A stretch of 64,000 bases of DNA, taken from NCBI GenBank assembly GCA_045627605.1, contig JAZQOA010000086.1:15281-79280 (forward strand). Direction: 5' to 3'. Both the position numbers and the translations under genes were made by a program. Source of the DNA: Kiritimatiellia bacterium (GTDB taxonomy: Bacteria; Verrucomicrobiota; Kiritimatiellia; RFP12; JAAYLN01). Below the pieces are notes generated by a model. That model was not told the origin of the DNA, ran no database searches, and saw only the letters and a list, made by a program, of their open reading frames with translations. Shown piece after piece: positions 4,675 to 55,195 of this stretch (its first letter is position 1; each line of letters opens with the position of its first letter).

Positions 4675-4678
4675 GAAA

Positions 4679-4692: not shown

Positions 4693-4728
4693 CCTTTGGC
4701 GGCGGCAGTTTGACGACCAGGGACGACC

Positions 4729-34336: not shown

Positions 34337-34413
34337 GGGGGAGTAGCGCAATTGGTTAGCGCACCGGACTGTCGATCCGGCGGTTGCGAGTTCGATCCTC
34401 GTCTCTCCCGCCA
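34337..34413 (+). tRNA. tRNA-Asp (anticodon GTC), CCA encoded
   Basis: Hand-folded cloverleaf. Acceptor GGGGGAG/CTCTCCC with one G-U pair. D arm GCGC-AATTGGTTA-GCGC. Anticodon stem CCGGA/TCCGG with loop CTGTCGA. T arm GCGAG-TTCGATC-CTCGT. Discriminator G plus CCA, followed by a T tract. Confidence 0.9.
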
Positions 34414-38544: not shown

Positions 38545-40359
38545 TTACCGGTCCTCCTTTACAAGGCGTTCGCGAAGATCAAGGATGCGGCTCACCATCT
38601 CGAGCCGCAGGTAGTCGAGTGCCGAACGTTCGTAATCGACCTGCGCAATCCACGTCGAGGCGGCGCGGCCCGCGTAGGCCGTGTCGATGTTTTTCGAGTG
38701 GCGCGCCTTCTCGGCGAGTTGCTTGAGGAGCGTGCCGTAGCGGATGTCGTCAAGCGCTTCGCGAAGGCCCTCCCACTCAATCGTGTCGATGATGTCGTGG
38801 TCCTGCGAGTAGACGAGCATCAGGCCGCGCAAAAAGGACTCCTGATGGACCCAGAAGTCGTTCCAGTTGTTCCTGAAGAGAATGTACTGGTTTGATGCGT
38901 CGTAGTTGCGGCGCCACGTCTGCCACCCGTAGATGCGGCGCGTGTAGTCGGGGTTCTCCGGGCCGCTGTGGGGGTCGCCGTACCAGCCCAGGCGCATGTC
39001 GGGATTGGCGTCGTGGAGGAGGTCGGCGTTGACCTTGCTGTGGTCCTTGGGCTGGCGCGGGATGTTGGCGAAGTCCAGGCCGAAGAGCAGGTACTTGTGG
39101 TAGCCGGTCGTCGCATAGACATAGCCGCCCTGCTTCTGCGTCGCCTGCCAGGTGGCGCGCTGCGCCCTGACGGTGGCGGGACCGCCCTCGTCGATGGCGT
39201 ATGAATAAGCCGTCACACCCTCGCCAAAACGCCCCCGGAGCGCGGCGAGGCTGTTCGAAACCGCGTATGCGGTGTTGACGTACTTAGCGTATTCGCGGTC
39301 CGTTTCCTTCACGGGGTACGAGGTGGTGACGCCCGATCCCGGCACGGCGTGGAAGAGGACGTTGGTATCCATGCCGGCTTCGGCCAGGACCTTGTAGAGG
39401 CGCTCCGCCTCGCTGGGGCGGTTGACTTCGCTGACCCGGACGTTGCGCATGTTGTGGGCGGCGAGGTTCTTCGCGATCTTGGGGTTGTCCGCGAGACTCA
39501 CGTAGAGGTAGGCGGAAAGGAGGAACGGGCGGCTAAGGTCGCGGAATGTCGCGGGCAAAGGCAACTCGAAAGGCAGCACCTTGAGCTCGACGGGGATGCG
39601 CACGGACTTGCCGGCGGCGGAAACCGTGACCGCCCCCTTGTAAAGTCCGGGCTGGGCGCCGGCAGGTACGTGGCAGGTGAAGATGATTTGCTTGAAGGCG
39701 TTTTTCTGGATGGCGAAGGGCTTGAGCGAGGCGGCATCGTGAATCCACTCGGGCTTCGGCTCGGAGACGCCCGTGTGGTCCACGAAGGCGCCAATCGCGC
39801 TGACCAGCTGGTAGGCCGTGGCCCCGCCGTAGTCGCAGCGGAGGAAGTTCTCCTTCGTCTCGTGGTTGACGTCGACAAGCGTCTCGTCGTTCAGCAGCAG
39901 CTCCGGCGTCGGCATGCGGCGGGTGGCGTCCGACTCATACGACCCCCAGGCCGTTCCCTGCTGGTACCAGACCTTGAGGACCTTGGCCCTGATCTCCGAG
40001 GCGTGGATCCGGGCTCCGTTCTTCGCGACGAGATCCCCGGGAACCAGCGTGGCGGCGGCAATGTCGTCGAAGCCGAAAAGCAGAAAAGAGCCGTCCTCGT
40101 ACTCGCCTTTCGCCGCCATCAGCCGGCAAGGGCCGGTAAAGTCGCCATCGACGGGAAAGAGGTCGGGCGTGCGGCGAATGCCCGAAAGGGGATCCACCGT
40201 GCAGACGGCGAAGGGGGCGTCCTTCCAGTAGGCATCCTTGCGAAAAGTCTCGACCTTGGCGCGGTTTGTCTTTTGCATCGCGCCATCGACGGGATAAGGG
40301 GTGTCGGCCAGCGCCGTTGCGCAGACAAGCGCCAGTGCCGTTGCCAAAATGCGTTTCAT
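38545..40359 (-). CDS. Secreted hypothetical protein (~604 aa), possibly DUF4091/GH123-like
   Basis: Signal peptide MKRILATALALVCATALA at the internal ATG 40359. The stop directly abuts the start of the downstream gene (38544/38545). The family guess comes from the C-terminal W/Y-rich region and is weak. Confidence 0.55.
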   Translation of the reverse strand: MKRILATALALVCATALADTPYPVDGAMQKTNRAKVETFRKDAYWKDAPFAVCTVDPLSGIRRTPDLFPVDGDFTGPCRLMAAKGEYEDGSFLLFGFDDIAAATLVPGDLVAKNGARIHASEIRAKVLKVWYQQGTAWGSYESDATRRMPTPELLLNDETLVDVNHETKENFLRCDYGGATAYQLVSAIGAFVDHTGVSEPKPEWIHDAASLKPFAIQKNAFKQIIFTCHVPAGAQPGLYKGAVTVSAAGKSVRIPVELKVLPFELPLPATFRDLSRPFLLSAYLYVSLADNPKIAKNLAAHNMRNVRVSEVNRPSEAERLYKVLAEAGMDTNVLFHAVPGSGVTTSYPVKETDREYAKYVNTAYAVSNSLAALRGRFGEGVTAYSYAIDEGGPATVRAQRATWQATQKQGGYVYATTGYHKYLLFGLDFANIPRQPKDHSKVNADLLHDANPDMRLGWYGDPHSGPENPDYTRRIYGWQTWRRNYDASNQYILFRNNWNDFWVHQESFLRGLMLVYSQDHDIIDTIEWEGLREALDDIRYGTLLKQLAEKARHSKNIDTAYAGRAASTWIAQVDYERSALDYLRLEMVSRILDLRERLVKEDR

Positions 40360-40414
40360 CCTCGGGAACCTCCTCTTGTCGTTGTTCATCGTGCGAATAG
40401 GCCGCAAGCACAAT

Positions 40415-41278
40415 TCATGCCATGTAGCTGGCCCGGAAATCGGCGATGACGCCGCGGACGTAGTCCCTCTCCCCGGGCTGGGAAATATCGAAACCGTAGA
40501 TGTTTTCCGACAAGTTCTTGCAGACCTCGAGGTTCACGGGGCCGTCGAAGCCGCGCTTGTCCATCGCCCTGCGGAGCGCCTTGAAATCAAGCGTGCCCAT
40601 GCCCGGCTTGAGGTGTTCGTCCCACTTTCCGTGGTTGTCCGTGATGTGGAGCTCGCAGACCTCGAAGGGAATGCTGTCGAGATAAGTCTCGAAATCAATG
40701 CCCTGGCGAAGGGAGGCGACATAGGCGTGGCCGACGTCAAGGAGCAGTCCCGCACTGCGGTCGCCGCCGAAGAGGTCGTAGGCCTCCTGGAAGCGCGGGT
40801 CGCAATTGTAGAAGGAAAGGTCGTGCGGGTCGTCCGAGCCGCATGTGTTCTCAATCCCGTAGCGGATGCCGGTTCCGGCGAAATGCGCCGCATGGCGGCG
40901 GAAAAGTTCGTAGGAGAGCTTGATTTGCGAACGCCTGTTGCCCTCTTCGTCCCGGTCGTTTATGGAATCGGAACAGCAGTCGTAGAGCAAGCCGCCGGTC
41001 GCTTCGTTCCACCAGTCGATTTCGTCGTAGAGCGCCTTGAGGAAATCCTCGTCGAAGCCGTCCTTGGCGGGCGTCAGGTTGTTCTGGACGTTGCCATGGA
41101 CGCAAAGCGTCATCCCCTTCTCCTTGAGGAAAGCCGCCGCCTCGGCCTTTTCGCCCTTGTCGAACGCCATGATGTTCTGGAGGATCGAAACGCACGTGCA
41201 ACCCTCGCCATGGAGGAAATCAAAGGTGTCGGGGAGTTTCAGGCCCCCGAGCAGCCAGCTGCAATAGCCAAGTTTCAT
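40415..41278 (-). CDS. Sugar phosphate isomerase/epimerase (xylose-isomerase-like TIM barrel)
   Basis: MKLGYCSWLLGG, LLLDVGHAYV and ELHITDNHGKWDEHLKPGMGTLDF, typical AP-endonuclease-2/XI-like metal ligand motifs. Confidence 0.75.
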   Translation of the reverse strand: MKLGYCSWLLGGLKLPDTFDFLHGEGCTCVSILQNIMAFDKGEKAEAAAFLKEKGMTLCVHGNVQNNLTPAKDGFDEDFLKALYDEIDWWNEATGGLLYDCCSDSINDRDEEGNRRSQIKLSYELFRRHAAHFAGTGIRYGIENTCGSDDPHDLSFYNCDPRFQEAYDLFGGDRSAGLLLDVGHAYVASLRQGIDFETYLDSIPFEVCELHITDNHGKWDEHLKPGMGTLDFKALRRAMDKRGFDGPVNLEVCKNLSENIYGFDISQPGERDYVRGVIADFRASYMA

Positions 41279-41348
41279 TACGGATGCTGCCTTTCAAATT
41301 TGGAAAAGTATTTTAGCAAAAATCTAAGGACTATGTTATAAATGTTAC

Positions 41349-42008
41349 ATGAAAATCGAGGAATTAATCGACAAGAATGATGCAACGGCGCAGTTGGTGA
41401 AGGCCGCGTTGAACATCCTTATGGAGTCGCCCTACTTTTACAAGACAGACGACGAACGCGCCTTCCTGGCCGTTTTGCATTACAGGCAGGCCTTTGCGGC
41501 TTTCTTTGAGAAATTCTTCGGCTGGACGCTCGTCGTCGACGCCAAGTGCGCCCGCCTCTACAAGCCCAAGTGGTACAATGAGGAAATTACCGAGTCGAAC
41601 CGCGACATGTTTGGCTTCACGAAACGAGACGAATGCATTGCCTTCCTCCTTTTGCTGGAGTTCTTCGAGCGCGAATCGCGTGAACAAGGGGTGGCCGTTG
41701 ACGACCGCGAGAACCTTCGCTTTCGCTTCGGCGATTGGCTTGAGATGTCGGCTCGTCGTTTCCGCGAACTATTGCCGGACAAACGCGAGGCCTATGCCGA
41801 CGAACGCGTCCGCCAGATCCTCCGTTCCATCATGCCGCAACTCGAGCGCTATCGTTTTTTGCGCAAGGTGCGCCCAACAGGCGAGGAGGATGTCGGCGAA
41901 ACCGAGACAATCTACGAGGCGCTTCCGGCATTGTGGCACTATCAGGCCGCGCAGCTTGCGGAGCCACTATTATTTTCAGTTGACGAGAATACGAGTGAAA
42001 AGAAGTGA
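41349..42008 (+). CDS. JetB/MksE-like small subunit (KITE-type, DUF4194/DUF2398-like) of a Wadjet/Mks SMC system
   Basis: 219 aa. The segment FLAVLHYRQAFAAFFEKFFGWTLVVDAKCARLYKP matches my recollection of the JetB/MksE pattern (hydrophobic helix, G-L/W-x-L-x-hydrophobic-D, A-x-L). The context is directly upstream of jetC and jetD. No Shine-Dalgarno sequence. A TATAAA box ends 7 nt before the ATG, so the transcript may be leaderless. Confidence 0.55.
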   Translation: MKIEELIDKNDATAQLVKAALNILMESPYFYKTDDERAFLAVLHYRQAFAAFFEKFFGWTLVVDAKCARLYKPKWYNEEITESNRDMFGFTKRDECIAFLLLLEFFERESREQGVAVDDRENLRFRFGDWLEMSARRFRELLPDKREAYADERVRQILRSIMPQLERYRFLRKVRPTGEEDVGETETIYEALPALWHYQAAQLAEPLLFSVDENTSEKK

Positions 42009-42012
42009 GAAC

Positions 42013-42924
42013 ATGAGCGACATGACGGAAATGAGTTTAGCGGTGCTGATTGACGCCGACAATGTTGTGCGTTCCGACATGAATGTTGTGATCGGTGAAA
42101 TCGCCAAGTATGGCACGCCGGTCATCAAGAGGGCCTATGGCGATTGGTCGTCTTCGGCATTGTCAGGGTGGAAGGAGGTTTTGCTTGACATCGGTGCCGT
42201 GCCAATCCAGCAATATGCCTACACCACGGGCAAAAACGCAACTGACGTGGCCATGGTCATCGACGCGATGGATTTTCTTCACAATGGTGATGTCGATGGT
42301 TTTGTACTTGTTTCAAGCGACAGTGACTTCACACCATTGGCGTTGAGGTTGCGGGAATCAGGCAAAAAGGTATTTGGCATAGGCGAGAAGAAAACTCCCC
42401 GACCGTTTATCAAAGCCTGCGACAAGTTTATCTATGTCGAAATACTAAGGCCCGCGTATGTTTTGGCCCCAACCACTGTTATTGAATCCGACTCTTCAAC
42501 TTCGACTAGGCAACCGGGACCTCTTTTACCGATGTCTGTAAAATCGCATTGCCCGACACAACCCGTGGACAAGCATGAGACAACTTCCTGCATGGCCGCT
42601 CCATTGCCTGCGAATAACACTGCCTCGCCGAAAAACAATGAAAATCAAAAAGTGTCGCAGGCTACGGCAGCGTCAAGCGTCAAGAAGGCGGTCACTGCAA
42701 AAACGGTCGCCTTTATTGCGCAATGTATATCTGAAATTGCCAACGACGATGGACGATGCACATTGGCTAATTTGGGCAGTCTGATTTCGAAGAACCGTCC
42801 TGATTTCGACAGTAGAAATTACGGTTATTCCCAGTTGTCAAAGTTGCTTAAGTCTATTGACCGATTCCAAGTCACGGGCTCTGGCGCAACGATCAGCGTA
42901 AAGGACAAAAGTCAAAATTCATGA
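42013..42924 (+). CDS. NYN-domain (PIN-like nuclease, LabA/DUF88) protein with a C-terminal LOTUS/OST-HTH domain
   Basis: NYN acidic motifs AVLIDADNV, TDVAMVIDAMDF and FVLVSSDSDFTPLA. A ~85-aa low-complexity linker follows. The C-terminal OST-HTH-like segment is FIAQCISEIANDDGRCTLANLGSLISKNRPDFDSRNYGYSQLSKLLKSIDRFQV. The ATG lies 4 nt after the jetB-like stop, and the stop overlaps the jetC ATG (ATGA at 42921-42924). Confidence 0.8.
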   Translation: MSDMTEMSLAVLIDADNVVRSDMNVVIGEIAKYGTPVIKRAYGDWSSSALSGWKEVLLDIGAVPIQQYAYTTGKNATDVAMVIDAMDFLHNGDVDGFVLVSSDSDFTPLALRLRESGKKVFGIGEKKTPRPFIKACDKFIYVEILRPAYVLAPTTVIESDSSTSTRQPGPLLPMSVKSHCPTQPVDKHETTSCMAAPLPANNTASPKNNENQKVSQATAASSVKKAVTAKTVAFIAQCISEIANDDGRCTLANLGSLISKNRPDFDSRNYGYSQLSKLLKSIDRFQVTGSGATISVKDKSQNS

Positions 42925-45900
42925 AGACGCAGGAACGCTATCATATCTCGGCTGTACGCCTTGTTGAGTTTCACAATCTCGGTACGACAACGGTTTCGCT
43001 TCCGGATGGCGGCCATCTTTTTCTCCTTGGCGACAACGGTTCTGGAAAAACCACATTGCTTGACGCGATTCACTTGGTTCTTACGGCCGGGAGGGAAATG
43101 GAATTCAATGCCGCGGCGCGCGTGGCCGGGGCCAAGGATTCGGGGGGGCGCACTTACCAGGGTGTTGTGCTGCGGTACAATGCCGTGACGGGACGCACGC
43201 ATCGTGAAAGCGGCATCACATACGCTGCGTTGGAACTGCAGGCCGACAACGGACGCGTCATTTCGCTTGCCGTCGGACTTGCGGCAGACGGGATGGATGT
43301 CCAAATCGAGCGTCGGGGGGCAATCGCCTCCGTGCCGGTTGCGGAACTCCCGCTGACCATCGAGGAGGACGGCCGGCAACGCGTCGCGACACTGCGGGAG
43401 TTCAAGACAGGCGTCGATGCGTTGCCGGGTGGCCACGCATACACGAATATCAACGAATACGCCGATGCCGTAGGGGTGCGCCTTTTCGGCGGAGTCGACA
43501 AGTATGCGGACGTATGCAAGCTCCTTCGCACGGGCAAGGCCTACCGCGAGATCGCGGCGCGCGCGGCCAACTACGACGAGCTCTTTCGCCAACTTCTCGA
43601 AGATCCGTCCCGCGAGACTTTCGAACCCTTGCTGACGGGTCTTCGCGAATTGGATCGCAGCAAAGCCACATTTGACCAGATTGACGAGCGTTCGAAATAC
43701 TTGGAGGACTTGAGGCGTGAGAGCAGGCGTTTGGCCGACATCCGCCTGAAGACCGAACTTCTGGCCTGGATATCAGCCGAGCATGCGCGTAAGATGGCCT
43801 TGGCCGAGATAGAACGCCTGACGGCGTCGATTGACGCCGCCGCGGCGGAACGAATGCAACTGGAACGGGAGGCGCAGTCCGCCAAGGAGGCCATAGCCCT
43901 CGCCAAGGAGCGACTCATCGAATTGCGTTCAAAGGACGCGACGGGGCTTGTCAACCAAGAGAAACAGGCGGCGGCGCGTCTTGCCGAGGCGGAGCGAAAA
44001 GCGGGCGACGCAAAACATGACGCCGCCGAACAGCGGAAGCGCGCGACGGCGGATGCCGATGCGGCGGCCTTTGCCAGGAAGGAACGGGCACTCGTGGCGA
44101 AGCGCCATGGGGATTGCCTTCAGAAAGCCGCCAAGACCGCTGCGCTCGGCGCCGGTGCCGTCACGGACTTTTTGTTTGCCGTGGCGAATGGCGACGACAG
44201 CGGATCTGATGAAATGCCATTTGCCGCATTTCGTAAAACCATAGGCGAGGCCATTGAGACGAGAACGCGCGAGAAAGGTGATGCCTTTTATGCCGTGAAT
44301 GCAGCTGAAGATGAGGCGGAGGCTGCGCGCCAGGCACTCGACCTCCTCAAAAGCCGCGAGGAGAGTTTGCCGAATGTGCCGGGCTTTGAGCAGGCCCGGA
44401 CGGAAATACGGTCGTCACTTCTGGACGCGCGTCCAATCTACGAAGCCCTTGAACCGGCGCCTGGGTGCGATGCGAGGCATCTTGCCATGCTCGAACGGAT
44501 ATTAGGTGACGATTTCCTTTCCACGTGGATCGCCGCTGAAAGCGCGTTTGACGCCGTGCGCCGTGTCGCCTGGCAGGCAAACGACGCCCAGTCGGTGGCG
44601 TGCCGCGGCGATGCCGACGGGGTGGATGTGACATCTCTGACGCCTTGGCTCGGCTCGTATATTTCATTTGAAGAATCCGATGTTGAGGCCGTTCGCCTTG
44701 TTGCCTCGCATCTCGCCGCCAAGCTCGCCCCCGCCGATGGCGCGTTTCTCTCATTCAAGACCTGGGAGTTCCGAGCCAGGCATGGTGTGCTGGCGGACGC
44801 CAAGCCGCGTCTCATCGGGCATAAGGCGCGCGCGGCGGAACAGGCGCGTCTTGTGCGGGCGGCCGAAGAGCGACTTTCCGCCATCGAGAAGGAACTGAAG
44901 AAACTTCGCCGGAAGGCCGACGCATGCGCGGAGTCCCTTGCCGCGGTAAAGGGGCTTAACGCCGTGCTGGAGGAGGCCCGGGCTGATTTCTGCGCCGCAG
45001 CTGAAAAAGCGAGTCGTGCGCGGGAACGGGCAAGGAGTTCGAATGAGCTGGCGGAGCGTGTCGAGTCCGAGGCCCAGGCGAGGAAGGACGAGGCGGCCGA
45101 GGCGCACGCCGAACTTGACGACATCCAGCTCAAAATGCGCGCAGCTGGAATCGACGGAGCTTTGGAAAAGAAGATAGCCGATGTCGATAGGAAGGTGCGT
45201 CAGGGCGAGGATAAGGTCGCTGGCATCAATCAGCGTCTTGGCGAAACCAATGCGCGGGTGAAATCTTCGGAGAAGGCTCGCGCGGAACAACAAATGATTG
45301 TCGAGCGGGAGCTGTTACGCGCAAGCGAATGCGCCCGGCATTTTGAGGATGCGATGCCCGAGGACGGTGATGTCGCCAAGTTCGCGCACACGAAGTGCCC
45401 CGCAGCCTTTGAGCCGGGCGCTGATTTCAATGGCTTGCGCGAGGGCTTTGTTTCCGCCGGGAAGGTTTCCGAGACCGTCATTGAGCAGAAAATCCGCGAT
45501 GCGAAAGGCGAATTCTATTCATTTTCCTTCGATCGCGTCGCGAATCGCCTGGCAGATCGACGGGGGAGCTCGCTTGACGACGTGATCACAGACGAAACGC
45601 GCCGGCTCGACGAACTTCGCGGTGTGATAAATCAGAAGACCCGCGAGGTTTTCGAACGGATTTTCAAGGGCGAGGTGATGCGGCGGCTCAACATCAACCT
45701 TCTTGCCGTGGAGAATCTGGTGCGGCGCATACAGAAGAAACTGGCTGGTCGTCGCTTTGGCTCGAACCGATATGCCTTCGAAATTTCACCCGTACCCGAA
45801 TACGAGGCTTTCGTGGAGCTTGTCAGACATGGCAATCTCTTCGATTTGGATGACAGCGACGAAAAACTACGCGAATGCCTGGAGTCGCACCGGGATGAAA

Positions 45901-46403
45901 TTATGAATGCGGATCTTGATTGCGTACCGGATATCTTCGACTACCGCAAGTGGTTCCGCTTTCAGTTGAAGGTGGTCGTTGAAAACGACGAGGGACGCGT
46001 CATAGATCGCAAAGTGAAGAGCATGGGCTCCGGTGGCGAGCAGGCTGTGCCGAACTACCTGCTGATCCTCACGGTGGCGGAATTCCTCTACCATGGTGGC
46101 GAAGCAAATGGTTTGCCAAAGCTTTCCCCGCTTTTGTTCGACGAGGCATTCTACGGAATCGACGCCGCGCGCCGCGATCAGTTGCTGGCGTTTGCCGAAG
46201 ACCTAGGTCTCCAGCTATTCGTGTCATCACCGGACCAGGACGGCGTAAAACGCGAGATTCGCCATTCGGTTTCGCTCATCGTTGTCAAGGACGAACACCT
46301 CGATGTCCACCTAAGTCCTGTCCTTTGGAACAATGCGCCAGTTCAGACGGACATGCTTGGCGAGACAACGGCAGTGGGCATGACCGTGTTGGAGGAGATT
46401 TAA
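42921..46403 (+). CDS. SMC-like ABC ATPase, JetC/MksB-type (TIGR02680-like)
   Basis: 1160 aa. Walker A GDNGSGKTTLLDA. A central A/E/R/K/L-rich coiled-coil of several hundred residues. ABC signature MGSGGEQAV. Walker B/D-loop PLLFDEAFYGID. Confidence 0.8.
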   Translation: MKTQERYHISAVRLVEFHNLGTTTVSLPDGGHLFLLGDNGSGKTTLLDAIHLVLTAGREMEFNAAARVAGAKDSGGRTYQGVVLRYNAVTGRTHRESGITYAALELQADNGRVISLAVGLAADGMDVQIERRGAIASVPVAELPLTIEEDGRQRVATLREFKTGVDALPGGHAYTNINEYADAVGVRLFGGVDKYADVCKLLRTGKAYREIAARAANYDELFRQLLEDPSRETFEPLLTGLRELDRSKATFDQIDERSKYLEDLRRESRRLADIRLKTELLAWISAEHARKMALAEIERLTASIDAAAAERMQLEREAQSAKEAIALAKERLIELRSKDATGLVNQEKQAAARLAEAERKAGDAKHDAAEQRKRATADADAAAFARKERALVAKRHGDCLQKAAKTAALGAGAVTDFLFAVANGDDSGSDEMPFAAFRKTIGEAIETRTREKGDAFYAVNAAEDEAEAARQALDLLKSREESLPNVPGFEQARTEIRSSLLDARPIYEALEPAPGCDARHLAMLERILGDDFLSTWIAAESAFDAVRRVAWQANDAQSVACRGDADGVDVTSLTPWLGSYISFEESDVEAVRLVASHLAAKLAPADGAFLSFKTWEFRARHGVLADAKPRLIGHKARAAEQARLVRAAEERLSAIEKELKKLRRKADACAESLAAVKGLNAVLEEARADFCAAAEKASRARERARSSNELAERVESEAQARKDEAAEAHAELDDIQLKMRAAGIDGALEKKIADVDRKVRQGEDKVAGINQRLGETNARVKSSEKARAEQQMIVERELLRASECARHFEDAMPEDGDVAKFAHTKCPAAFEPGADFNGLREGFVSAGKVSETVIEQKIRDAKGEFYSFSFDRVANRLADRRGSSLDDVITDETRRLDELRGVINQKTREVFERIFKGEVMRRLNINLLAVENLVRRIQKKLAGRRFGSNRYAFEISPVPEYEAFVELVRHGNLFDLDDSDEKLRECLESHRDEIMNADLDCVPDIFDYRKWFRFQLKVVVENDEGRVIDRKVKSMGSGGEQAVPNYLLILTVAEFLYHGGEANGLPKLSPLLFDEAFYGIDAARRDQLLAFAEDLGLQLFVSSPDQDGVKREIRHSVSLIVVKDEHLDVHLSPVLWNNAPVQTDMLGETTAVGMTVLEEI

Positions 46404-47611
46404 TGCCGGACGATGACCGTTTATTTATCCCCGCGGGGAAAATCACCGCTGCATTAAACCGCGCCCCGGCGTTGCGCCCTTTTCTGGCACGTCTTGCCCG
46501 TCGTGCCTTGAAGGGCCAGCCCATGCCGAATTCCTTTACGGCTGGGAAAATCGACTACGTGGCGCAACAGGAGCTGAACATCCTGCTCCGCACCGTCACG
46601 GTGCGCTCTGCGGAAGGGAACGTTCACGGCAAGATGCCGGTGCGGCTTGCAGAGCCTGAAGTCTGGCTACCCGTCGCGAAAGCACTTGGGATAGAGGCGA
46701 ATGAATCGGCTGAAACGCCCCGCGCCATGTTTGCCCGGCTGGAATGGTCGCATCCAGGGAAAATGGGCGTTCTTCGCGCGCTTGAACATGAGCAAGAGGT
46801 GTCAAAATACCTGAAATCAGGTGAACGATGCCGCGAATGGACCAAGCTCTTCAATCTGGCCGTTGAGGTTGAATCATTGCCGACATCGCAAGTGCTGACG
46901 CTTTCCCAGCTTGGTTCGTCGGCATTCAACGACAGCAAGGTTCTGCGGTCAGGGGCGTTGCGGCGGCAGCTTTGCTTGATTCTCGCGGCTTTTTCAGGCA
47001 TGTTGCCAGAAGACGAACGTGGGGTGTTTGGCTCATTTGGAATAGTTGAGAATCCCTACACCAGCTCCGTGACTGTTTTTGCCCCGTTCGCGTTCTGTGA
47101 TCGCGATGGCGTTGTTTTCGATTTTCCCGCCCGGATGTTTGCGGCTGGGCTTGCCTGCCAGCTGCCCCTTGAGACCGTCGGGCATATGACCCGCGTTGAA
47201 TGGCGCGGAGCGGAAAAGAAGGTCGTGACAAGCGAAAACGCAGCGCCACTTGTGGCCTTTGTCGAGAAGCGAATCCCCTGTGTCTACACCGAGGGGTATC
47301 CAAATACTGCGGTACTACGTCTGCTGGAACTTATCTCTTCTTGCGGGGTGACGGCGAGCCACTGGGGCGACGCCGACTTGGACGGGTTGCTGATCGCACA
47401 TGCGGTCTCAACGAAAATTTCCGTTACCCAGACCATGGCGCTCCAAATCATAAACATGCCCGGAGCGCTCAAGGGCATTCCGCTAACTTCGGAGCAAAGG
47501 AACAGAATCGAGCGTTTCATTGACACGCGGCCTATGTCGGAATATACCGGTCCTCTTCGGCAGCTTCTAGCAAGGGACTGCTGGTACGAACAGGAGGCAT
47601 TCCCGTTATGA
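46403..47611 (+). CDS. JetD/MksG-type protein with a C-terminal Toprim-like nuclease domain
   Basis: 402 aa. C-terminal Toprim signature with Glu in VVTSENAAPL and DxD in HWGDADLDGLLIA. The start overlaps the jetC stop (TAATG, 46401-46405). The upstream GTG/ATG-extended ORF-track start (46325) lies inside jetC. Confidence 0.75.
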   Translation: MPDDDRLFIPAGKITAALNRAPALRPFLARLARRALKGQPMPNSFTAGKIDYVAQQELNILLRTVTVRSAEGNVHGKMPVRLAEPEVWLPVAKALGIEANESAETPRAMFARLEWSHPGKMGVLRALEHEQEVSKYLKSGERCREWTKLFNLAVEVESLPTSQVLTLSQLGSSAFNDSKVLRSGALRRQLCLILAAFSGMLPEDERGVFGSFGIVENPYTSSVTVFAPFAFCDRDGVVFDFPARMFAAGLACQLPLETVGHMTRVEWRGAEKKVVTSENAAPLVAFVEKRIPCVYTEGYPNTAVLRLLELISSCGVTASHWGDADLDGLLIAHAVSTKISVTQTMALQIINMPGALKGIPLTSEQRNRIERFIDTRPMSEYTGPLRQLLARDCWYEQEAFPL

Positions 47612-49182
47612 AGCGCAAGCAAGAAGATTTGGCGGGCGACCTCTTTGCAGTCGGATTGCAAGGAGACGACAGGCCGACATCGCCCCCGGCAAAGCTCATT
47701 GACGCACCGTTGGTCAATGAGACCGCGACTTGGCTTGCCGCTCGCGCCACAACGCTTGGCAGTCTTTTCGCAAGTGATCGCGCCGCCGAGTATGTGGCGA
47801 TTTTACGGGCCTTTGCGCAATTCCGGGCAGGTCATGAGCCGGAGCCTTTGCACGAAGACCTTTTCAATCTTGTCTGCGGAGACGAGGCGACAAGCGAGGA
47901 CGAGGCGCTTTTCAAATCTGACATCAGGCAGTTGAAGGACTGGCAGCTTGTCACGGACCGGATCGAAAAAGAACGGTTGCGCGGGTATCGGGACACGCGC
48001 CGCACCAAGTTCCGCTATCACCTTCATGACGATGCCGTGGCATTTGTCGCCTGGCTTGAGGAACGCAGAATCCAGGATCTTCATCCAGACGACGGGAACA
48101 TCACCAAGTATCTTCTTGACCGGCAGTGTTCCCTGCTAAATGAACTCTGTCGGTTGACGCGCAAGGTCGTGCCGTCAAAGGTCGATCATGAAATCGCCGG
48201 AGACGTCCTCTACAGGATTGACCAAGTCGGCCGCTTTGTCGAGGCCACGGCGCATGACCTTCAGGTGCTGAACCTTCGCCTGCTGAGTTTCGGCGCAGAT
48301 GCCTTCAAGGTGGATGAAGCCAGGGAAATAGTCGATGAACTCGGCGTTTTCCTGGAGCGGTTCGGTCGGCATTTTAACGATTCCCGCTCAGAGATAACAG
48401 TTCTGATCGCCACCCTTCGGCGAGAGGTTCAGATGTCGCGTTTCAAGGCCTGCGCGGAGCGAATGCGAGAAGACGCCGCGAAGTATCGCCATATCGCTTC
48501 CAGAAATATTCCAGATGCCGAAGCCATATTGTCCGACGCTTCGAGTTTCTATGGCGACAATGGCCGCCTGATTGAGTTGATGGGGAGGGTTGTCGATTCT
48601 GCGCGCAAGGTCTGGGGACGGCTCAACGCCAAGTTGCGCGAACTTGAACGCCGCAATCACCGTCTTGATGATGTAAAGGCCAGGCTTGACGATTTCGCCA
48701 GGCTAAGCGAGGACGAGGTTCCGTACGGCTGGATGCGTCGTCTTCTGGAGACGGCCTCGCTGCGAGGTGACGCGCAAATCCGGCCTGATGGCGAAAAATC
48801 ACGCCCGCCTATGCCGAAGCGCTCGTCGAATGTCAGAGCCAAGCGTGATGTCACCTGGATCACACCTCGCAAAGTCGGTGAAAAAGCGGACGTCCGTTCA
48901 ATAGCGGAGGCACGAGCTCAGCTGATGCGTGACTGGATGAACGAGCGCGGCATCATGCCAGACAAGAAGGACGAGTGCCGATTGTCATCTGGTTCTTACG
49001 TAAAGTATGAAGATTTCAAGATGATCATGAAGCTTGTGCAGGCGGTTCGCCTTGGCAACGGGGAAAAGGCGAAGCGCTTGCTTGGAGTGACTGGCGAACA
49101 ACTTCCAGAGCGAGTCGCCATTGCCAAGGATGGCTTTTCACTGACACTGGACGACATCCGCCTGTTGCCATTTGAGGCTTGA
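47608..49182 (+). CDS. JetA/MksF-like (kleisin-type, DUF2397/TIGR02677-like) subunit, located last in the operon
   Basis: 524 aa. The N-terminal winged-helix-like region is SLFASDRAAEYVAILRAFAQF...IRQLKDWQLVTDRIEKERLRGYRDTRRTKFRYHLHDDAVAFVAWLEE, followed by long helical segments. The ATG overlaps the jetD stop (ATGA, 47608-47611). The family call is from memory of the HMM pattern, not a search. Confidence 0.55.
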   Translation: MKRKQEDLAGDLFAVGLQGDDRPTSPPAKLIDAPLVNETATWLAARATTLGSLFASDRAAEYVAILRAFAQFRAGHEPEPLHEDLFNLVCGDEATSEDEALFKSDIRQLKDWQLVTDRIEKERLRGYRDTRRTKFRYHLHDDAVAFVAWLEERRIQDLHPDDGNITKYLLDRQCSLLNELCRLTRKVVPSKVDHEIAGDVLYRIDQVGRFVEATAHDLQVLNLRLLSFGADAFKVDEAREIVDELGVFLERFGRHFNDSRSEITVLIATLRREVQMSRFKACAERMREDAAKYRHIASRNIPDAEAILSDASSFYGDNGRLIELMGRVVDSARKVWGRLNAKLRELERRNHRLDDVKARLDDFARLSEDEVPYGWMRRLLETASLRGDAQIRPDGEKSRPPMPKRSSNVRAKRDVTWITPRKVGEKADVRSIAEARAQLMRDWMNERGIMPDKKDECRLSSGSYVKYEDFKMIMKLVQAVRLGNGEKAKRLLGVTGEQLPERVAIAKDGFSLTLDDIRLLPFEA

Positions 49183-49359
49183 CAGTCATTGTCAAGCTGT
49201 TGACTGTTAATGTTTTACAATAAACCGAAGGCTCCGCATACAGTCAACAAACTCCTTCGTCTTCGACGGCACTGGCACCAGAGCCGTTGGCCCCAGTGCT
49301 TTGCAAACCGGTATTCCCGGGTGATGCATCTGTTTCCCCTGGGATATTCACGACCGCAG

Positions 49360-50949
49360 TCAAACTGCGGCCCGTACGACAGTGCCCTCGACGAAGCGGC
49401 GGGTGCCGCGTTCGAAGGAGAGCCCCACGAGCCATACGGGCTTGTCGGGCGCAAGGAAAGGCTCGGCGTACTGCTTCGCCGTCGCCTGGTCCATCGCGAC
49501 CACTGCGGGACGGTCCACCTTCAGCTCGAAGATGTAGGTGCCGCACGGATGGTCCGCCACGAGGTCGATGCGCCCGTCGGATGTCGTCCGCTCCGGCTCC
49601 ATGCGGAAGCCCTGCCCTGCCAGCAGGAACTGTAGGTTCCGCGCGAACGACGCCTCATGCACCGTCTCCTCGGTCGAGCCGTACGACACACCTGCATAGA
49701 GCGACTTGAGTCCCCTGAAAAAATCGTCCCACTCGCAGTCCAGCAGCCGTCCGCCAAGCCGAACCGCCCACGCCGTGTCTTTGTCAGCCGCCAGCCCAGC
49801 CATCAACTTCGAGAGATCACGGCGCACCTCGGCGTCAGGAACGCCCAGCACGTAAGACCCGCGTCTGGAATCGTAATCGAGAATCGTCAAGTAGCCAGTC
49901 TGGTAGAGCATCGCAGGCGCACGAAGATTCGTCAGGTCGCTCACGTCGAAGTCCTCGTCTCGAATGCCGGTCAGCCGCTCTGGGTCGATCGCCAGCAGGT
50001 CGCCGCGCTTGAGAACGTTCATCAGCATCGACGCCCGTCCTGTCTTGGACCAGTAAAACTCGAACTCATCATCGCACTTCGCGAGATTGAGGTTGATCGA
50101 CACGGGGTTGTAGACCTTCTCCCCGCGCTTCTTCCAGAACCGATAGCCGTTGTAGAGCCGACGGAGCTCCGCACGGTAGGCGTCGTAGGCAAGCCCCATC
50201 TTCTCAGCCTGCATGCGCATGCGATCGGAGAAGTACTCGTCGAGCTCAGCCTCGGTATAGCCGAGCATCATCGCGTACCCATCTTCAAGGGAAAGGTCAA
50301 TCAGGTTCGAGAGCGTCGAGAAAATCGACATCTTCGTGAACTTCGAGACACCCGTGATCATCAGGAAACGGTACTTCTCGGTACGGTCCTTGAGCTGTCC
50401 GTAGAACGTCGCGAGAAGTGTGCGCACCTTCTCAGCGAACGGGATGTCATGCAGGACCTTTGCTACGGGATCGTCGTACTCGTCCACCAAGATGACCGGA
50501 AGCTCACCCTCCCCGCGCATCGCCTTCGCCGCGAGCACATCGATGGCCGCACCGAAGTTCTCGCCCGGATCTTTCGCCGGATCGTAATTGCAACCGGCTT
50601 CGGCAATCACAGCCCCGATGCGCGCGGCAAACGACCTCTCGAAGTTCTCGTAGCCCGTCGCGTTCGCGCACTGGCCGAAGTTGAAGTGCAGGACGGGATG
50701 CCTCTTCCACTCGTAGTCAGTCTTCGCGATCGCAAGGCCCTCGAAGAGGTCCTTCCTACCGTTGAAGATCTCCTTCAGCGTGGTGATCATCAGCGACTTG
50801 CCGAAACGCCGCGGACGCGCAATGAACAGGCACTTGCGACTGGACGTCACCAGCCGATGCAGGTATGCGGTCTTGTCCACATACAGCATCTGCGGGTTCG
50901 CCGTGCGAATCGCAAGAAAGCTTCCGGTGTCCTCAGGTATCGGTTTCAT
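49360..50949 (-). CDS. AAA-ATPase-like domain protein with a C-terminal PD-(D/E)XK nuclease domain (PF09820+PF08011-type architecture)
   Basis: N-terminus FLAIRTANPQMLYVDKTAYLHRLV...LFIARPRRFGKSLMITTLKEIF. C-terminus SDGRIDLVADHPCGTYIFELKVD (D...E-x-K). ATG at 50949, with a GTG at 50952. Confidence 0.7.
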   Translation of the reverse strand: MKPIPEDTGSFLAIRTANPQMLYVDKTAYLHRLVTSSRKCLFIARPRRFGKSLMITTLKEIFNGRKDLFEGLAIAKTDYEWKRHPVLHFNFGQCANATGYENFERSFAARIGAVIAEAGCNYDPAKDPGENFGAAIDVLAAKAMRGEGELPVILVDEYDDPVAKVLHDIPFAEKVRTLLATFYGQLKDRTEKYRFLMITGVSKFTKMSIFSTLSNLIDLSLEDGYAMMLGYTEAELDEYFSDRMRMQAEKMGLAYDAYRAELRRLYNGYRFWKKRGEKVYNPVSINLNLAKCDDEFEFYWSKTGRASMLMNVLKRGDLLAIDPERLTGIRDEDFDVSDLTNLRAPAMLYQTGYLTILDYDSRRGSYVLGVPDAEVRRDLSKLMAGLAADKDTAWAVRLGGRLLDCEWDDFFRGLKSLYAGVSYGSTEETVHEASFARNLQFLLAGQGFRMEPERTTSDGRIDLVADHPCGTYIFELKVDRPAVVAMDQATAKQYAEPFLAPDKPVWLVGLSFERGTRRFVEGTVVRAAV

Positions 50950-51047
50950 CACGCAAGATTATACCACATTCTGCGACGGCGCGACAATCCGACTTCACCT
51001 AACGGCAATGGTAGTGCCATAGCCCCTCATTTTGCCATACTACTCCC

Positions 51048-52277
51048 ATGCGGAGAATTTGCCTCTACAGTTTACCTCTTCTCCTCCTCGCCGCCGCCTG
51101 TCCGACGGCGACGGTGGTGGTTGCCGACGGCGACACCGTGACCAGCGAACCCGCCGGCATCGACGACCTCACCTTCGTCACCGCCGACCTCGACCCCGGC
51201 GTCGCCTACCACGTCCGCATCTTCAACGGCCTCTGCGGCTACGTCGACGTCACCGTCAACAACCTCGCGCTCGTCTCCGAAACCGAAGCCGAATGGCCCG
51301 CCGACAGAACCCGCACCGACATCGGCGTGGGCGAGGTGGTGAGACTGTCGCTTCGCCCGACTCTGCAGTCGAATGTAACATGGTCTTGCTTCGGTTCCCT
51401 CATAAAGCAAGAAGCTAATGAAAGTGTAGTAAAAGTTAGAGCTACAGACACTCATGGATCGGCAAAGGTTTCAGCAATGATCGGCGACATCCGACTCAGT
51501 ATGCAGTTTATGGTCTTTAGTCCAACAGGGTATTCGTTTGCAGAAGCATACACTTACGGTGGTGCCAACGCATACCCGGGATTTGCCGAGGTCGAGGGGC
51601 TAATCGATGTTTACCTAGCTCCGACAAATGTTAGCTTTGCAAACGTCTGGATGGAGGAAGGGTATGCAGAGGCCACTAATGTGTCTGGATGGTTCCTATG
51701 GCCTGGCAACAGTTGCAATCATGATTCAGAGCATGGTGCTTTCATTCCATGTGAAATTTCCAGTCGCAATTTCTTTACGGACATGATTGGCAGTGACTTC
51801 AAGCCAGGTGATTGGATTGACGGCGAAATGAAATGGGAAATACCCACTTCATGGTGGATTATTCCAGAGGATGGTGCTTCGACCAATCGGCATCAGATGT
51901 CAAGACCCAGAGCGCAAATGTTCTCAATTCGGCGCAACGGAACTTTCACAATAACAAAGTTTGGAACGGGGTTAACTCGAACGCCCCGAGGAATGGTTAC
52001 GGAAATACCGGAAAAGATACGACCGATAAAAGATGCGCCGCGAGACAAACCCCTGCCCCCTCCTCCTCCAGCTTCATTCATGTCCCCACTTGAAATTAAA
52101 CCAAATGATTCCCCGGACCGCATCAAGGAGGTAATGGGCATAAATGAAACGATAGCGAGCAACTACGCTGCCAGAGTCGCATCATATCAGGAAGACAAGG
52201 TAAAAAGAGCGTTCTTTCGAGAATTTGATTCGTTCTACAATCAGCTCCATGTTTTCGTGGACTATGTTTTGCAATAG
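51048..52277 (+). CDS. Hypothetical secreted protein or lipoprotein (409 aa) with a proline-rich C-terminal segment
   Basis: Signal-like N-terminus MRRICLYSLPLLLLAAAC. No recognisable family. There is an abrupt GC drop inside the ORF near 51.37 kb. Confidence 0.5.
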   Translation: MRRICLYSLPLLLLAAACPTATVVVADGDTVTSEPAGIDDLTFVTADLDPGVAYHVRIFNGLCGYVDVTVNNLALVSETEAEWPADRTRTDIGVGEVVRLSLRPTLQSNVTWSCFGSLIKQEANESVVKVRATDTHGSAKVSAMIGDIRLSMQFMVFSPTGYSFAEAYTYGGANAYPGFAEVEGLIDVYLAPTNVSFANVWMEEGYAEATNVSGWFLWPGNSCNHDSEHGAFIPCEISSRNFFTDMIGSDFKPGDWIDGEMKWEIPTSWWIIPEDGASTNRHQMSRPRAQMFSIRRNGTFTITKFGTGLTRTPRGMVTEIPEKIRPIKDAPRDKPLPPPPPASFMSPLEIKPNDSPDRIKEVMGINETIASNYAARVASYQEDKVKRAFFREFDSFYNQLHVFVDYVLQ

Positions 52278-52305
52278 CCATGCATATCCTTTACGGAGTG
52301 ATACG

Positions 52306-52581
52306 ATGAAGACTGCTCTTACCATGCTCATGCTTTGTGTTTCGGCGGTATTTGCCGAAGATGCAATCCCGCCTTCCGATCTTAACTTCGGCAATTTGGT
52401 GTTTTGCATCACGAATGGTGTTTCCATTAATGCCGAATCTTCACCTCAACCAGAATCCAATGTGTCCAAACTCTCCTCCGCATTGGCCCATACGGATTCA
52501 CCATTTCTGCGGGATTCCCCGAAGCTGTTTTTGTCCGCCCCGTCCGCTACGCGCCCCCCTCCATGGGCTGCCTTGAGTTGA
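52306..52581 (+). CDS. Small hypothetical secreted protein (91 aa)
   Basis: Signal-like MKTALTMLMLCVSAVFA from the internal ATG 52306. No homology recognised. It could be non-coding. Confidence 0.3.
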   Translation: MKTALTMLMLCVSAVFAEDAIPPSDLNFGNLVFCITNGVSINAESSPQPESNVSKLSSALAHTDSPFLRDSPKLFLSAPSATRPPPWAALS

Positions 52582-52678
52582 TATATTAACTTTTCAACTC
52601 TCCAACGCATTGGGAAACCGGGGATATTCCCCCCAGGAATTGGCAGGAAATATCCCGCAAGGCTTCGCCGACATCCTC

Positions 52679-52707
52679 TTGCGGGATGCCGGGCAATCCA
52701 GTATAAT
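52679..52707 (+). promoter_or_regulatory. Candidate sigma-70 promoter for the phosphodiester glycosidase gene
   Basis: TTGCGG (52679-52684), 17-nt spacer, TATAAT (52702-52707). An AAGGAG ribosome-binding site at 52721-52726 lies 7 nt before the ATG at 52734. Confidence 0.45.
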
Positions 52708-52733
52708 TGAGAAAGCATCCAAGGAGATTTTCC

Positions 52734-53705: not shown

Positions 53706-53733
53706 CCAAAGTCCGTCGCGGAAGCGACCCCAT

Positions 53734-53770
53734 AAAAAAAGGCCGGCGGGAAACCCGCCGGCCTTTTTTT
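53734..53770. terminator. Bidirectional rho-independent terminator between convergent genes
   Basis: A7 tract, perfect stem GGCCGGCGGG-AAA-CCCGCCGGCC (53741-53763), then T7 tract. Confidence 0.8.
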
Positions 53771-53785
53771 GCGTCCTTGCGCAGC

Positions 53786-55195
<1,410 letters not shown>

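Follow-up and report, generated by a model that had tools for sequence, protein, structure and literature searches.

Does a predicted nuclease gene lodged between two genes of a Wadjet operon belong to the SMC machine, or does it travel with it as cargo? The question is raised by a Kiritimatiellia contig, of which we analyzed a stretch of 64,000 nucleotides (the window). NYN-LOTUS, the gene at issue, has a translation free of stops, and the opposite strand is riddled with them. The sequence-only reading had taken its product for an intact enzyme that could add a new functional layer to Wadjet-like systems. The first part of that account agrees with our results, while the comparative evidence does not support the second. 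We give a probability of roughly 0.6 to NYN-LOTUS being cargo of a divergent Wadjet operon, co-transcribed with it but autonomous and directed at RNA.

Table 1. Features of the NYN-LOTUS gene and the surrounding operon (window positions)
Feature	Position	Strand	Remarks
NYN-LOTUS gene	42013-42924	+	303 aa; main subject; between JetB-like and JetC genes
NYN (PIN-like) nuclease domain	42037-42438	+	aa 9-142; Pfam NYN PF01936
D14	42052-42054	+	predicted catalytic residue
D44	42142-42144	+	predicted catalytic residue
D78	42244-42246	+	predicted catalytic residue
D103	42319-42321	+	predicted catalytic residue
D105	42325-42327	+	predicted catalytic residue
Linker, S/T/P/N-rich, predicted disordered	42451-42696	+	aa 147-228, 82 aa
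Minimal LOTUS/OST-HTH winged-helix domain	42697-42906	+	aa 229-298
xylose-isomerase-like TIM-barrel gene	40415-41278	-	opposite the rejected 346-aa ORF
Divergent intergenic region 5' of jetB	41279-41348	.	70 bp, AT-rich
JetB-like KITE subunit	41349-42008	+	219 aa; single KITE, DUF2398-like; first gene of operon
JetC-like SMC ATPase	42921-46403	+	1160 aa; PADLOC JetC1 E 1e-45; Pfam AAA_29, SbcC_Walker_B
JetD-like Toprim nuclease	46325-47611	+	428 aa; PADLOC JetD1 E 1e-18; Pfam DUF2399, JetD_C
JetA-like kleisin	47608-49182	+	524 aa; DUF2397-like; last gene of operon

The protein is a member of the bacterial family that joins an NYN domain (PF01936/COG1432, LabA-like) to an OST-HTH domain. Its NYN match (E = 9.5e-42; 143.4 bits against a Pfam gathering cutoff of 24.2) spans profile positions 2 to 144 of 145. 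The C-terminal LOTUS-like domain proposed earlier matches OST-HTH PF12872 over aa 234 to 291 (E = 5.1e-14; 52.3 bits against a cutoff of 23.8) and, by phmmer, the structures 2kpm (E = 4e-8) and 2kzv (E = 2e-7). AlphaFold models both domains with high confidence (aa 8 to 141 and aa 229 to 298), the LOTUS domain as three helices and three short strands with the C-terminal extension helix absent. Foldseek searches with this model retrieved VPA0982 (2qip; E = 9e-9), the MARF1 NYN domains 5yaa and 6fdl (TM 0.76 to 0.78), and both bacterial LOTUS NMR structures, 2kzv and 2kpm. The intervening linker, also described in the sequence-only reading, is 44% S/T/P/N, compared with 22% elsewhere in the protein, and has a pLDDT below 50. 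Its length and sequence vary among homologs, and most stand-alone relatives have a far shorter linker or almost none. Under the names of Anantharaman, Zhang & Aravind (2010) and the NYN.COG1432 group of Matelska et al. (2017), this family (LabA-like or "LK-nuclease," e.g., VPA0982) has the same two domains, acidic residues, and fold as the window copy, which differs in its longer linker and in being nested in a Wadjet operon. With 38.1 bits against a curated cutoff of 178.45, the protein is not a member of the NCBIfam equivalog TIGR00288. The TIGR00288 name is attached to relatives in some sources.

The three acidic NYN blocks read earlier from the letters are in place (LIDADN at aa 12, TDVAMVIDAMD at aa 77, and LVSSDSDF at aa 99), and a fourth, G43-D44-W45, lies at the end of strand 2. 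In MARF1, a mouse and human NYN + RRM + LOTUS RNase that cleaves ssRNA with LOTUS assistance and Mg/Mn, the catalytic Asp residues lie where strands 1, 2, and 4 end and where helix 3 begins, accompanied by Asn and Ser (PMC6217404). These positions correspond to D14, D44, D103 (and D105), D78, N17, and S101/S102 of the window protein, all present, in a mapping made by secondary-structure position in the model against the published description. The mapping rests on fold and secondary-structure position because a PDB profile search did not reach MARF1 by sequence. In a set of 50 homologs, D14, N17, D44, S101, S102, D103, and D105 never vary, and at least 90% retain D78; all mapped active-site residues are invariant in a 21-sequence close set, and the catalytic residues are identical in the four other embedded copies compared. 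The conserved residues and the modeled fold thus indicate an intact NYN active site and predict catalytic competence, in line with the earlier impression of the protein.

The relationship to MARF1 is best taken as "works like" rather than membership. The NYN fold and the four catalytic Asp positions with Asn and Ser are common to both, but the window protein is 15 to 19% identical in structural alignment, lacks an RRM, and has one minimal LOTUS domain rather than eight. The prediction that bacterial NYN-LOTUS proteins are RNases dates from 2006 to 2010; according to a 2017 survey of PIN domains (PMC5499597), RNase activity had never been measured for any bacterial member, and none had been functionally characterized. 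Minimal and extended LOTUS domains both bind RNA, and protein binding is reported only for the extended form, which is confined to animals (PMC7498356). Binding of an RNA helicase, an option raised in the sequence-only reading, is therefore unlikely for this minimal domain without a C-terminal extension. NE0665 (PDB 2kpm), a bacterial LOTUS domain close to that of the window, did not bind G4 RNA (PMC7498356).

The neighboring genes encode kleisin JetA, KITE subunit JetB, SMC ATPase JetC, and Toprim nuclease JetD together, in the order B-NYN-C-D-A, which identifies a Wadjet operon. This call is based on DUF2397 (34.1 bits against a cutoff of 28.5), DUF2398 (40.4 against 26.9), and DUF2399/JetD_C at or above their Pfam cutoffs and on the PADLOC JetC match at E = 1e-45. 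The JetB-like protein matches only the N-terminal part of DUF2398, as well as PADLOC JetB2 (E = 5e-12); it has 404 homologs, with identities of 54 to 82% among the best 120 listed. The JetA-like protein matches TIGR02677 at E = 8e-10, under the cutoff of that model. The start of JetD is uncertain, and the gene overlaps the end of JetC. As in type II Wadjet (TIGR02677-02680; Neobacillus vireti JetABCD), the host proteins match the DUF2397, DUF2398, DUF2399, and JetC models; however, all four fall far below the NCBIfam equivalog cutoffs, and the operon does not classify as type II. Its JetB is a 219-aa single KITE whereas type II JetB is a tandem KITE, its JetC has 1160 aa, and its gene order is circularly permuted.

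Embedding in this operon, as first read, is tight: the NYN start codon lies 4 nt past the JetB stop (42008), and its stop overlaps the JetC start as ATGA (42921-42924). The divergent region 5' of jetB is presumed to hold the operon promoter; no sigma-70-like match was found on its plus strand. A promoter and terminator scan yielded no hits beyond those expected from shuffling, with neither type of element internal to the operon near the NYN-LOTUS gene, and Rfam found no RNA element within the operon. A 346-aa ORF 5' of jetB (40301-41341, plus strand) was rejected as an operon gene, having no family match and being the shadow of a minus-strand gene (Table 1). Embedded cargo genes go unmentioned in the Wadjet literature that we searched.

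For comparison, we used 80 species-level Wadjet relatives found with the JetB profile in MAGs of Kiritimatiellia, Lentisphaerae, and Verrucomicrobia; at these loci the four jet genes are all present, arranged as ABCD, BCDA, or DABC. No NYN gene occurs at any of the 63 JetB/JetC junctions among them, JetB being followed directly by JetC at 55, and just two of the 80 loci contain an NYN gene anywhere within 10 kb. A fifth Jet subunit would be expected in most operons of the subtype, and NYN-LOTUS is absent from most. Extra DNA is found at the B/C (8/63) and C/D (10/46) junctions, compared with 1/56 at A/B and 0/21 at D/A, and the two junctions flanking jetC are cassette hotspots. The cargo comprises SLFN_AlbA_2/HATPase_c_4 ATPases, NERD, RhuM, HerA with SPFH, ORF6N-PLD (PADLOC PDC-S05; E = 9e-108), AAA_14-DUF4143 (PDC-S01; E = 2e-86), T5orf172 (PDC-S57), and DUF1016/YhcG PDDEXK (PDC-S02; E = 2e-135), nearly all on the strand of the operon. 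BREX, DISARM, and type I R-M systems supplied the embedded genes behind the PDC (phage-defense-candidate) models (Payne et al., bioRxiv 10.1101/2024.01.29.577857), and the hotspots are comparable to the slots for embedded genes described in those three kinds of operon and in Hma. When occupied and empty B/C junctions were aligned at the nucleotide level, neither flanking repeats nor clear insertion scars were seen.

Embedding of NYN-LOTUS is restricted to one small clade, in which four arrangements were seen: B-NYN-C (the window and L006/7), B-NYN-SLFN-C (L194-197 and L200), B(deleted)-NYN-188aa-C(deleted) (L004/5), and B-NYN-...-D with JetC lost (L002/3). Cassettes are shuffled, since each of two SLFN alleles (only 26 to 30% identical to each other) is found both beside NYN and in its absence, in different Wadjet subclades. 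That the distribution is patchy within a subclade is a statement of moderate strength, drawn from tree topology. In operons from which JetC or JetB has been deleted, NYN-LOTUS keeps its full length and all its catalytic residues, and pairwise dN/dS values of 0.06 to 0.17 show purifying selection. Between L002 and L006, dS is 0.65 for NYN and 0.76 for JetB, indicating co-divergence. The longer disordered linker is the only clade-specific sequence feature that sets embedded copies apart from stand-alone ones. In metagenomes, the NYN clade profile recovered relatives of at most 54% identity and no further embedded-clade members; in viral contigs it recovered no relatives, and a phage collection held just eight weak or partial NYN records.

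The wider family is very large (9,692 clusters at 50% identity; E <= 1e-3) and mostly stand-alone. The window protein is 46 to 57% identical to hundreds of stand-alone members, and its nearest relatives outside the clade are stand-alone genes in varied contexts. Across 56 loci, the general family has no conserved neighbor, consistent with the earlier prediction of a stand-alone RNase without conserved neighborhood (Anantharaman, Zhang & Aravind 2010; PMC2848206). The largest neighbor cluster covers 4 of the 56, which means that the ~400-aa gene downstream in L088 and L092 is no general partner. NYN(-LOTUS) homologs occur on 378 plasmids, 165 of them conjugative. In four of eight inspected alphaproteobacterial (Rhizobiaceae/Phyllobacteriaceae) plasmids, the NYN gene heads or nearly heads an operon divergent from the relaxase gene traA. 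On pAgK84, an NYN-LOTUS gene adjoins traA.

We propose that the gene was probably captured into the JetB/JetC junction in one small lineage of rumen and gut Kiritimatiellia and is co-transcribed with Wadjet, its product acting alone as an accessory that targets RNA. The minimal LOTUS winged helix would capture single-stranded, probably G-rich, RNA, and the ~80-aa flexible tether would hand it to the NYN active site, which would cut it in a Mg2+/Mn2+-dependent manner, as demonstrated for MARF1. NYN-LOTUS would then be neither subunit, sensor, nor gate of JetABCD. As an autonomous, co-transcribed accessory it would thus be a defense candidate by "guilt by embedding" (Payne et al. 2024) and not a Jet subunit. 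The features on which that argument relies were all observed: the gene is flanked by same-strand genes of a multigene defense system, the slot is variable or empty in relatives, and homologs are common outside Wadjet. A close parallel is HEC-09 of the same preprint, also a MARF1-like NYN nuclease gene inside a multigene defense operon; it differs in having an N-terminal HTH and no LOTUS domain and in its host system, Hma rather than Wadjet. HEC-09 gave no defense against the phages tested (Payne et al. 2024, bioRxiv 10.1101/2024.01.29.577857). No PADLOC HEC/PDC model matched the window protein, which hit only a generic PADLOC NYN model, PDLC01154, at a weak E value of 0.0026.

Embedded genes may be functionally coupled to their host system, and an unlikely alternative is that NYN-LOTUS is a functional Wadjet accessory. 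It could serve as a second effector arm on plasmid transcripts, R-loops, or replication intermediates, or as a PrrC-like guard. In the guard version, NYN-LOTUS would be held inactive by JetB/JetC and freed upon Wadjet inhibition. PrrC in the type I R-M system EcoprrI and BrxU in BREX are likewise nuclease genes nested on the same strand in a larger defense system, and PrrC is controlled by EcoprrI. Physical and regulatory coupling is proven for PrrC, whereas the comparative data for the window gene point to autonomy. The tight translational coupling to both neighbors fits an accessory role, as do the long-term retention directly 3' of JetB in all six protein clusters examined from the embedded clade and the co-divergence with JetB; however, purifying selection on NYN-LOTUS persists where JetC or JetB has been destroyed, the B/C slot lacks NYN in related species and is occupied by unrelated, exchangeable cassettes, and the embedded copies carry no distinguishing feature besides the linker. 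Minimal LOTUS domains, moreover, are known to bind RNA and not proteins. An accessory role also draws on independent adjacency to the same Wadjet type. In L105, another NYN-LOTUS gene lies 46 nt after JetA, with HipA nearby; in L097, one lies just upstream of JetA, with AbiL nearby; and in L031, an NYN-Zn-ribbon gene follows JetD. The L097 and L105 adjacency is more frequent than the ~0.5% that two single-copy genes placed at random would give, and functional synergy could be the reason. Finally, family members in plasmid transfer operons adjoin oriT, so the family may act on conjugation intermediates.

A bolder form of coupling would make NYN-LOTUS the RNA-targeting arm or guard of SMC defense, silenced by JetB/JetC and unleashed on plasmid transcripts or conjugation intermediates once Wadjet is inhibited or has loaded onto a foreign circle; the presence of the family next to oriT would then be the plasmid-side view of a shared substrate. 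We regard this version as a long shot.

It is also improbable, if a little less so than that bolder form, that NYN-LOTUS encodes a housekeeping-type RNase for RNA turnover, brought into the operon by a chance recombination event and retained solely through its expression there, with no role in defense or mobile-element conflict. Many relatives at 46 to 55% identity lie near metabolic genes (5-formyl-THF cyclo-ligase with rubrerythrin, aminotransferase, and FMN reductase), sequence conservation is very strong family-wide, and the 56 loci hold no conserved antitoxin-like partner. On the other hand, the other occupants of the slot are defense-candidate families, the family is distributed sporadically, plasmids included, and several PVC-clade relatives lie in defense, toxin-antitoxin, or mobile-element contexts, such as RE_LlaJI/HipA_2 in L091, a Zeta toxin with SNF2/DUF3670 and DUF3791/DUF3990 in L175, and the L097 and L105 loci above. 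It is very improbable that NYN-LOTUS was left behind by, or captured from, a plasmid or ICE and works for that element (for example, in establishment or anti-defense), being neutral or antagonistic to Wadjet. The plasmid-borne homologs and their traA-divergent operons speak for this origin; against it stand a seamless insertion with no integrase, transposase, or repeats beside the gene, its position on the operon strand, its co-divergence with JetB over saturated dS, and the difficulty of rationalizing an anti-Wadjet gene under purifying selection inside Wadjet.

An intact enzyme gene within an operon is by itself no evidence of membership in the machine. The data show a Wadjet lineage with two cassette hotspots, one on either side of jetC, whose passenger families also occur inside operons of the BREX, DISARM, Hma, and type I R-M kinds; if confirmed, this would extend "guilt by embedding" to SMC-based anti-plasmid systems. 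Together with the plasmid-transfer copies, the embedded copy would give a very large family that was uncharacterized in 2017 a concrete conflict hypothesis, and it would offer a natural genetic context in which to test such a role.

The embedded NYN-LOTUS gene is a clean 303-codon open reading frame (ORF) whose opposite strand is riddled with stops, and its product matches the NYN and OST-HTH/LOTUS domains far over the curated Pfam cut-offs (table). The AlphaFold2 model, computed from an alignment of 50 sequences (mean pLDDT, 79), was confident for both domains and disordered for the linker, and it showed a LOTUS domain of the minimal type, lacking the C-terminal extension helix. Foldseek searches of this model against the PDB returned the LabA-like NYN protein VPA0982 (2qip; E = 9e-9), the NYN domains of mouse and human MARF1 (5yaa and 6fdl; TM, 0.76 to 0.78), and two bacterial LOTUS NMR structures. 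Cleavage of ssRNA by MARF1 requires each of four Asp residues, three located where strands 1, 2, and 4 end and one at the N-terminal end of helix 3, in a site that also has a conserved Asn and a conserved Ser (PMC6217404). Going by location in the model, the counterparts here are D14, D44, D103 (with D105), D78, N17, and S101/S102. Because D14, N17, D44, S101, S102, D103, and D105 are invariant among the 50 homologues and D78 is shared by at least 90% of them (all, D78 included, are invariant in a 21-sequence close set), the protein looks catalytically intact by alignment and model. The sequence-only reading had made the same claim, along with a Ser/Thr/Pro/Asn-rich linker and a C-terminal LOTUS domain, and all of these held: the four MARF1-type Asp positions are present and the predicted structure keeps the NYN fold. 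The three acidic blocks it quoted were located at aa 12, 77, and 99; a fourth, G43-D44-W45, had been overlooked. The protein belongs to the NYN.COG1432 plus OST-HTH family and not to TIGR00288 (38 bits versus a cut-off of 178), and it had no match among the PADLOC HEC/PDC models. By analogy it may work like MARF1, of which it is not an orthologue.

Features of the operon, its surroundings, and the NYN-LOTUS protein (nucleotide positions in the window; aa, residues of the protein)
Feature	Position	Strand	Remark
tRNA-Asp	34337-34413		
Xylose-isomerase-like TIM-barrel gene	40415-41278	-	AP_endonuc_2, E = 2e-20
JetB-like KITE	41349-42008	+	First gene of operon
NYN-LOTUS gene	42013-42924	+	
NYN domain	aa 9-142		Full length; Pfam E = 9.5e-42
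Linker	aa 147-228		44% S/T/P/N versus 22% in remainder
OST-HTH/LOTUS domain	aa 234-291		Pfam E = 5.1e-14
JetC-like SMC	42921-46403	+	
JetD-like Toprim nuclease	46325-47611	+	
JetA-like kleisin	47608-49182	+	Last gene
AAA-ATPase_like + PDDEXK_9 gene	49360-50952	-	E = 1e-47; convergent with jetA

NYN-LOTUS is the second of five co-oriented, tightly packed genes, starting 4 nt after the jetB stop and overlapping the jetC start as ATGA. Since a promoter scan around the gene found none and the intergenic room is too small for one, NYN-LOTUS is predicted to be co-transcribed with Wadjet. Pfam recognises DUF2397, DUF2398, and DUF2399 in the Jet proteins above threshold, but all four proteins score far under the TIGR02677-80 equivalog cut-offs. 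Whereas JetB of type II Wadjet is a tandem KITE, that of the window is a single KITE of 219 aa resembling just the N-terminal part of type II DUF2398; JetC, at 1160 aa, has a type-I-like length. Judged by these sequence comparisons, the host operon is thus a divergent, non-canonical Wadjet of order B-(NYN)-C-D-A. JetB proteins of this kind form ~400 clusters, and the recovered genome loci are nearly all MAGs of the PVC group. A 346-aa ORF upstream of jetB (40301-41341, plus strand) was rejected as a shadow of the minus-strand TIM-barrel gene, so the operon starts at jetB, from which that gene is separated by a 70-bp AT-rich divergent spacer. The drop in G+C content across 40000-54000 (55-59%, versus ~63% in the flanks) suggests an acquired island. 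No family match was obtained for ORF 51048-52277 or for ORFs 49210-49635 and 49657-51141 (both plus strand), which overlap the AAA-ATPase_like/PDDEXK_9 gene.

At least 8,000 homologues share words with NYN-LOTUS, and the family comprises 9,692 clusters at 50% identity (E ≤ 1e-3). Close relatives made up 16 clusters among the matches listed, with 61-69% identity by BLASTP and 62-72% in the multiple alignment. In all six clade clusters whose contigs were examined (the window's included), the gene lies directly 3' of jetB. The arrangements were B-NYN-C (the window and retrieved loci L006/L007), B-NYN-SLFN-C (L194-L197 and L200), and two decayed forms, each seen in two independent assemblies. One of these (L002/L003) reads B-NYN-...-JetD and has lost JetC; in the other (L004/L005), NYN-LOTUS and a 188-aa ORF stand between a JetB without aa 35-119 and a JetC reduced to aa 1-46 and 942-1057. 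Sampling of the embedded clade is narrow, since all metagenomic examples come from one ENA assembly series. NYN-LOTUS is intact in both decayed forms, with all catalytic residues kept, and pairwise dN/dS among embedded copies was 0.06-0.17, pairs from operons with destroyed JetC or JetB included. Synonymous divergence between L002 and L006 was similar for NYN (dS, 0.65) and JetB (0.76), which indicates that NYN-LOTUS travelled together with the operon, and saturated dS to the window points to an old capture. In a tree of JetB+JetC, the NYN-bearing operons from metagenomes formed one clade while the window grouped with NYN-free operons; presence of the gene therefore appears, with moderate confidence, to be patchy even inside this Wadjet subclade. 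A truncated JetC was also seen in an operon without NYN (L013).

A JetB profile search of species-representative genomes yielded 80 loci (L008-L087), nearly all from rumen/gut MAGs of Kiritimatiellia, Lentisphaerae, or Verrucomicrobia. JetC begins directly after JetB in 55 of 63 scorable B|C junctions; extra DNA of 0.3-9 kb occupies the other 8, as well as 10/46 C|D junctions, and interruptions were found at 1/56 A|B and 0/21 D|A junctions. Both jetC flanks are cassette hotspots in these Wadjet relatives (L011, L014, L016, L017, L019, L020, L022, L027, L029, L032, L041, L071, and L072). The inserted genes, nearly all of which share the strand of the operon, code for Schlafen-AlbA_2/HATPase_c_4/HTH ATPases, ORF6N-PLD proteins, AAA_14-DUF4143 ATPases, T5orf172, DUF1016/YhcG PDDEXK nucleases, NERD, RhuM-PLD, a 23S-rRNA-IVP-like protein, a SWIM protein, and HerA with SPFH. 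Several strongly match PADLOC PDC-S05, PDC-S01, PDC-S57, and PDC-S02 (E = 1e-50 to 2e-135), models whose source genes are nested within BREX, DISARM, and type I R-M systems (Payne et al. preprint, bioRxiv 10.1101/2024.01.29.577857). Two Schlafen-type cassette alleles (26-30% mutual identity) each occur with and without NYN-LOTUS in different Wadjet subclades, so cassettes in the slot are swapped independently of the flanking jet genes. Jet gene order differed clade by clade among the 80 loci: A-B-C-D in 31 complete loci, B-C-D-A (the window type) in 14, and D-A-B-C in 2 complete and 4 partial loci. All three orders are rotations of one cycle, which suggests either a circular intermediate or a tandem duplication with subsequent loss.

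By analogy with MARF1 biochemistry (PMC6217404), NYN-LOTUS would be a Mg/Mn-dependent RNase. Its minimal LOTUS domain may recruit single-stranded, probably G-rich, RNA, as LOTUS RNA-binding data suggest (PMC7498356), and the long flexible tether would bring the bound RNA to the NYN site; one caveat is that the structurally closely related NE0665-LOTUS did not bind G4 RNA (PMC7498356). Most likely, NYN-LOTUS is one of numerous interchangeable passengers and works on its own. Hma systems embed another NYN protein, HEC-09, for which the assays performed revealed no defence (Payne et al. preprint). The sequence-only reading had proposed a new functional layer of Wadjet: its observations of intact domains and embedding stand, but the interpretation survives only in part, and the new layer is not borne out, given that no NYN gene was found in any of the 63 B|C junctions of relatives and that the slot is shared with unrelated exchangeable cassettes. 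That NYN-LOTUS is a coupled effector or guard of Wadjet is accordingly unlikely. The best argument for some synergy is recurrent proximity: 2 of 80 metagenome loci retrieved by NYN similarity immediately adjoin the same Wadjet type (L105, with HipA, B-C-D-A, and then NYN-LOTUS 46 nt past JetA; L097, with AbiLi/AbiLii, NYN-LOTUS, and JetA), and a NYN-Zn-ribbon gene directly follows JetD in L031 (15419-16465). Shared residence in defence islands, however, would lead us to expect such proximity equally. The NYN-Zn-ribbon architecture (~348 aa) comprises NYN, several Zn-ribbons, and a C-terminal domain; in L055 such a gene (around 4200-5280) is separated from JetA, 3 kb downstream, by housekeeping-type genes.

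A hitch-hiking housekeeping RNase is somewhat less probable still. More distant NYN-LOTUS relatives (46-57% identity; ~245 aa, short linker) occur both in metabolic-gene contexts (L088, L092, and L181) and in defence, toxin-antitoxin, or mobile contexts (L091 and L175). Across 56 family loci, no conserved up- or downstream neighbour was found beyond clusters of 3-4, in agreement with Anantharaman et al. 2010 (PMC2848206), who likewise saw no constant gene context and proposed an RNA-degrading enzyme working alone. NYN-LOTUS homologues were found on 378 of 72,556 plasmids, 165 of them conjugative. That the embedded gene is a mobile-element remnant is very improbable.

Other members of the family have distinct settings of their own. 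In six assemblies (L175-L180), a 53%-identical NYN-LOTUS overlaps a 46-aa ORF followed by a 909-aa SNF2/DUF3670 helicase. This closely linked cassette is flanked by Zeta toxin, a DUF3791/DUF3990 pair, and NOV_C, surroundings of a mobile or defence-like kind. On pAgK84 (L185), Aminobacter pSR6 (L186), pC6.5e (L190), and a Rhizobium T1470 plasmid (L193), full-length NYN-LOTUS is first or nearly first in an operon transcribed divergently to the relaxase gene traA, adjoining the presumed oriT. A TraD-like mobilization protein, replaced in pAgK84 by a hypothetical protein, and a type IV coupling protein follow. Our literature search found NYN domains linked with traA/oriT nowhere. Klebsiella phage-plasmids of ~110 kb (H26/H27 and H42-H49), filed under both phages and plasmids, carry a conserved NYN-domain protein with 48% identity to aa 1-186.

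The nesting of NYN-LOTUS in Wadjet exemplifies defence-system embedding. The literature searched gave no report of gene embedding in Wadjet and co-mentioned Wadjet and NYN in unrelated passages only. Both the enzyme family and the type of arrangement are thus known; what is new is Wadjet as host and the visible cassette hotspot. Rather than adding a layer to Wadjet biology, the finding shows that cargo genes can be embedded in Wadjet operons, and the embedded copy offers a useful, testable handle on a very large uncharacterised RNase family.
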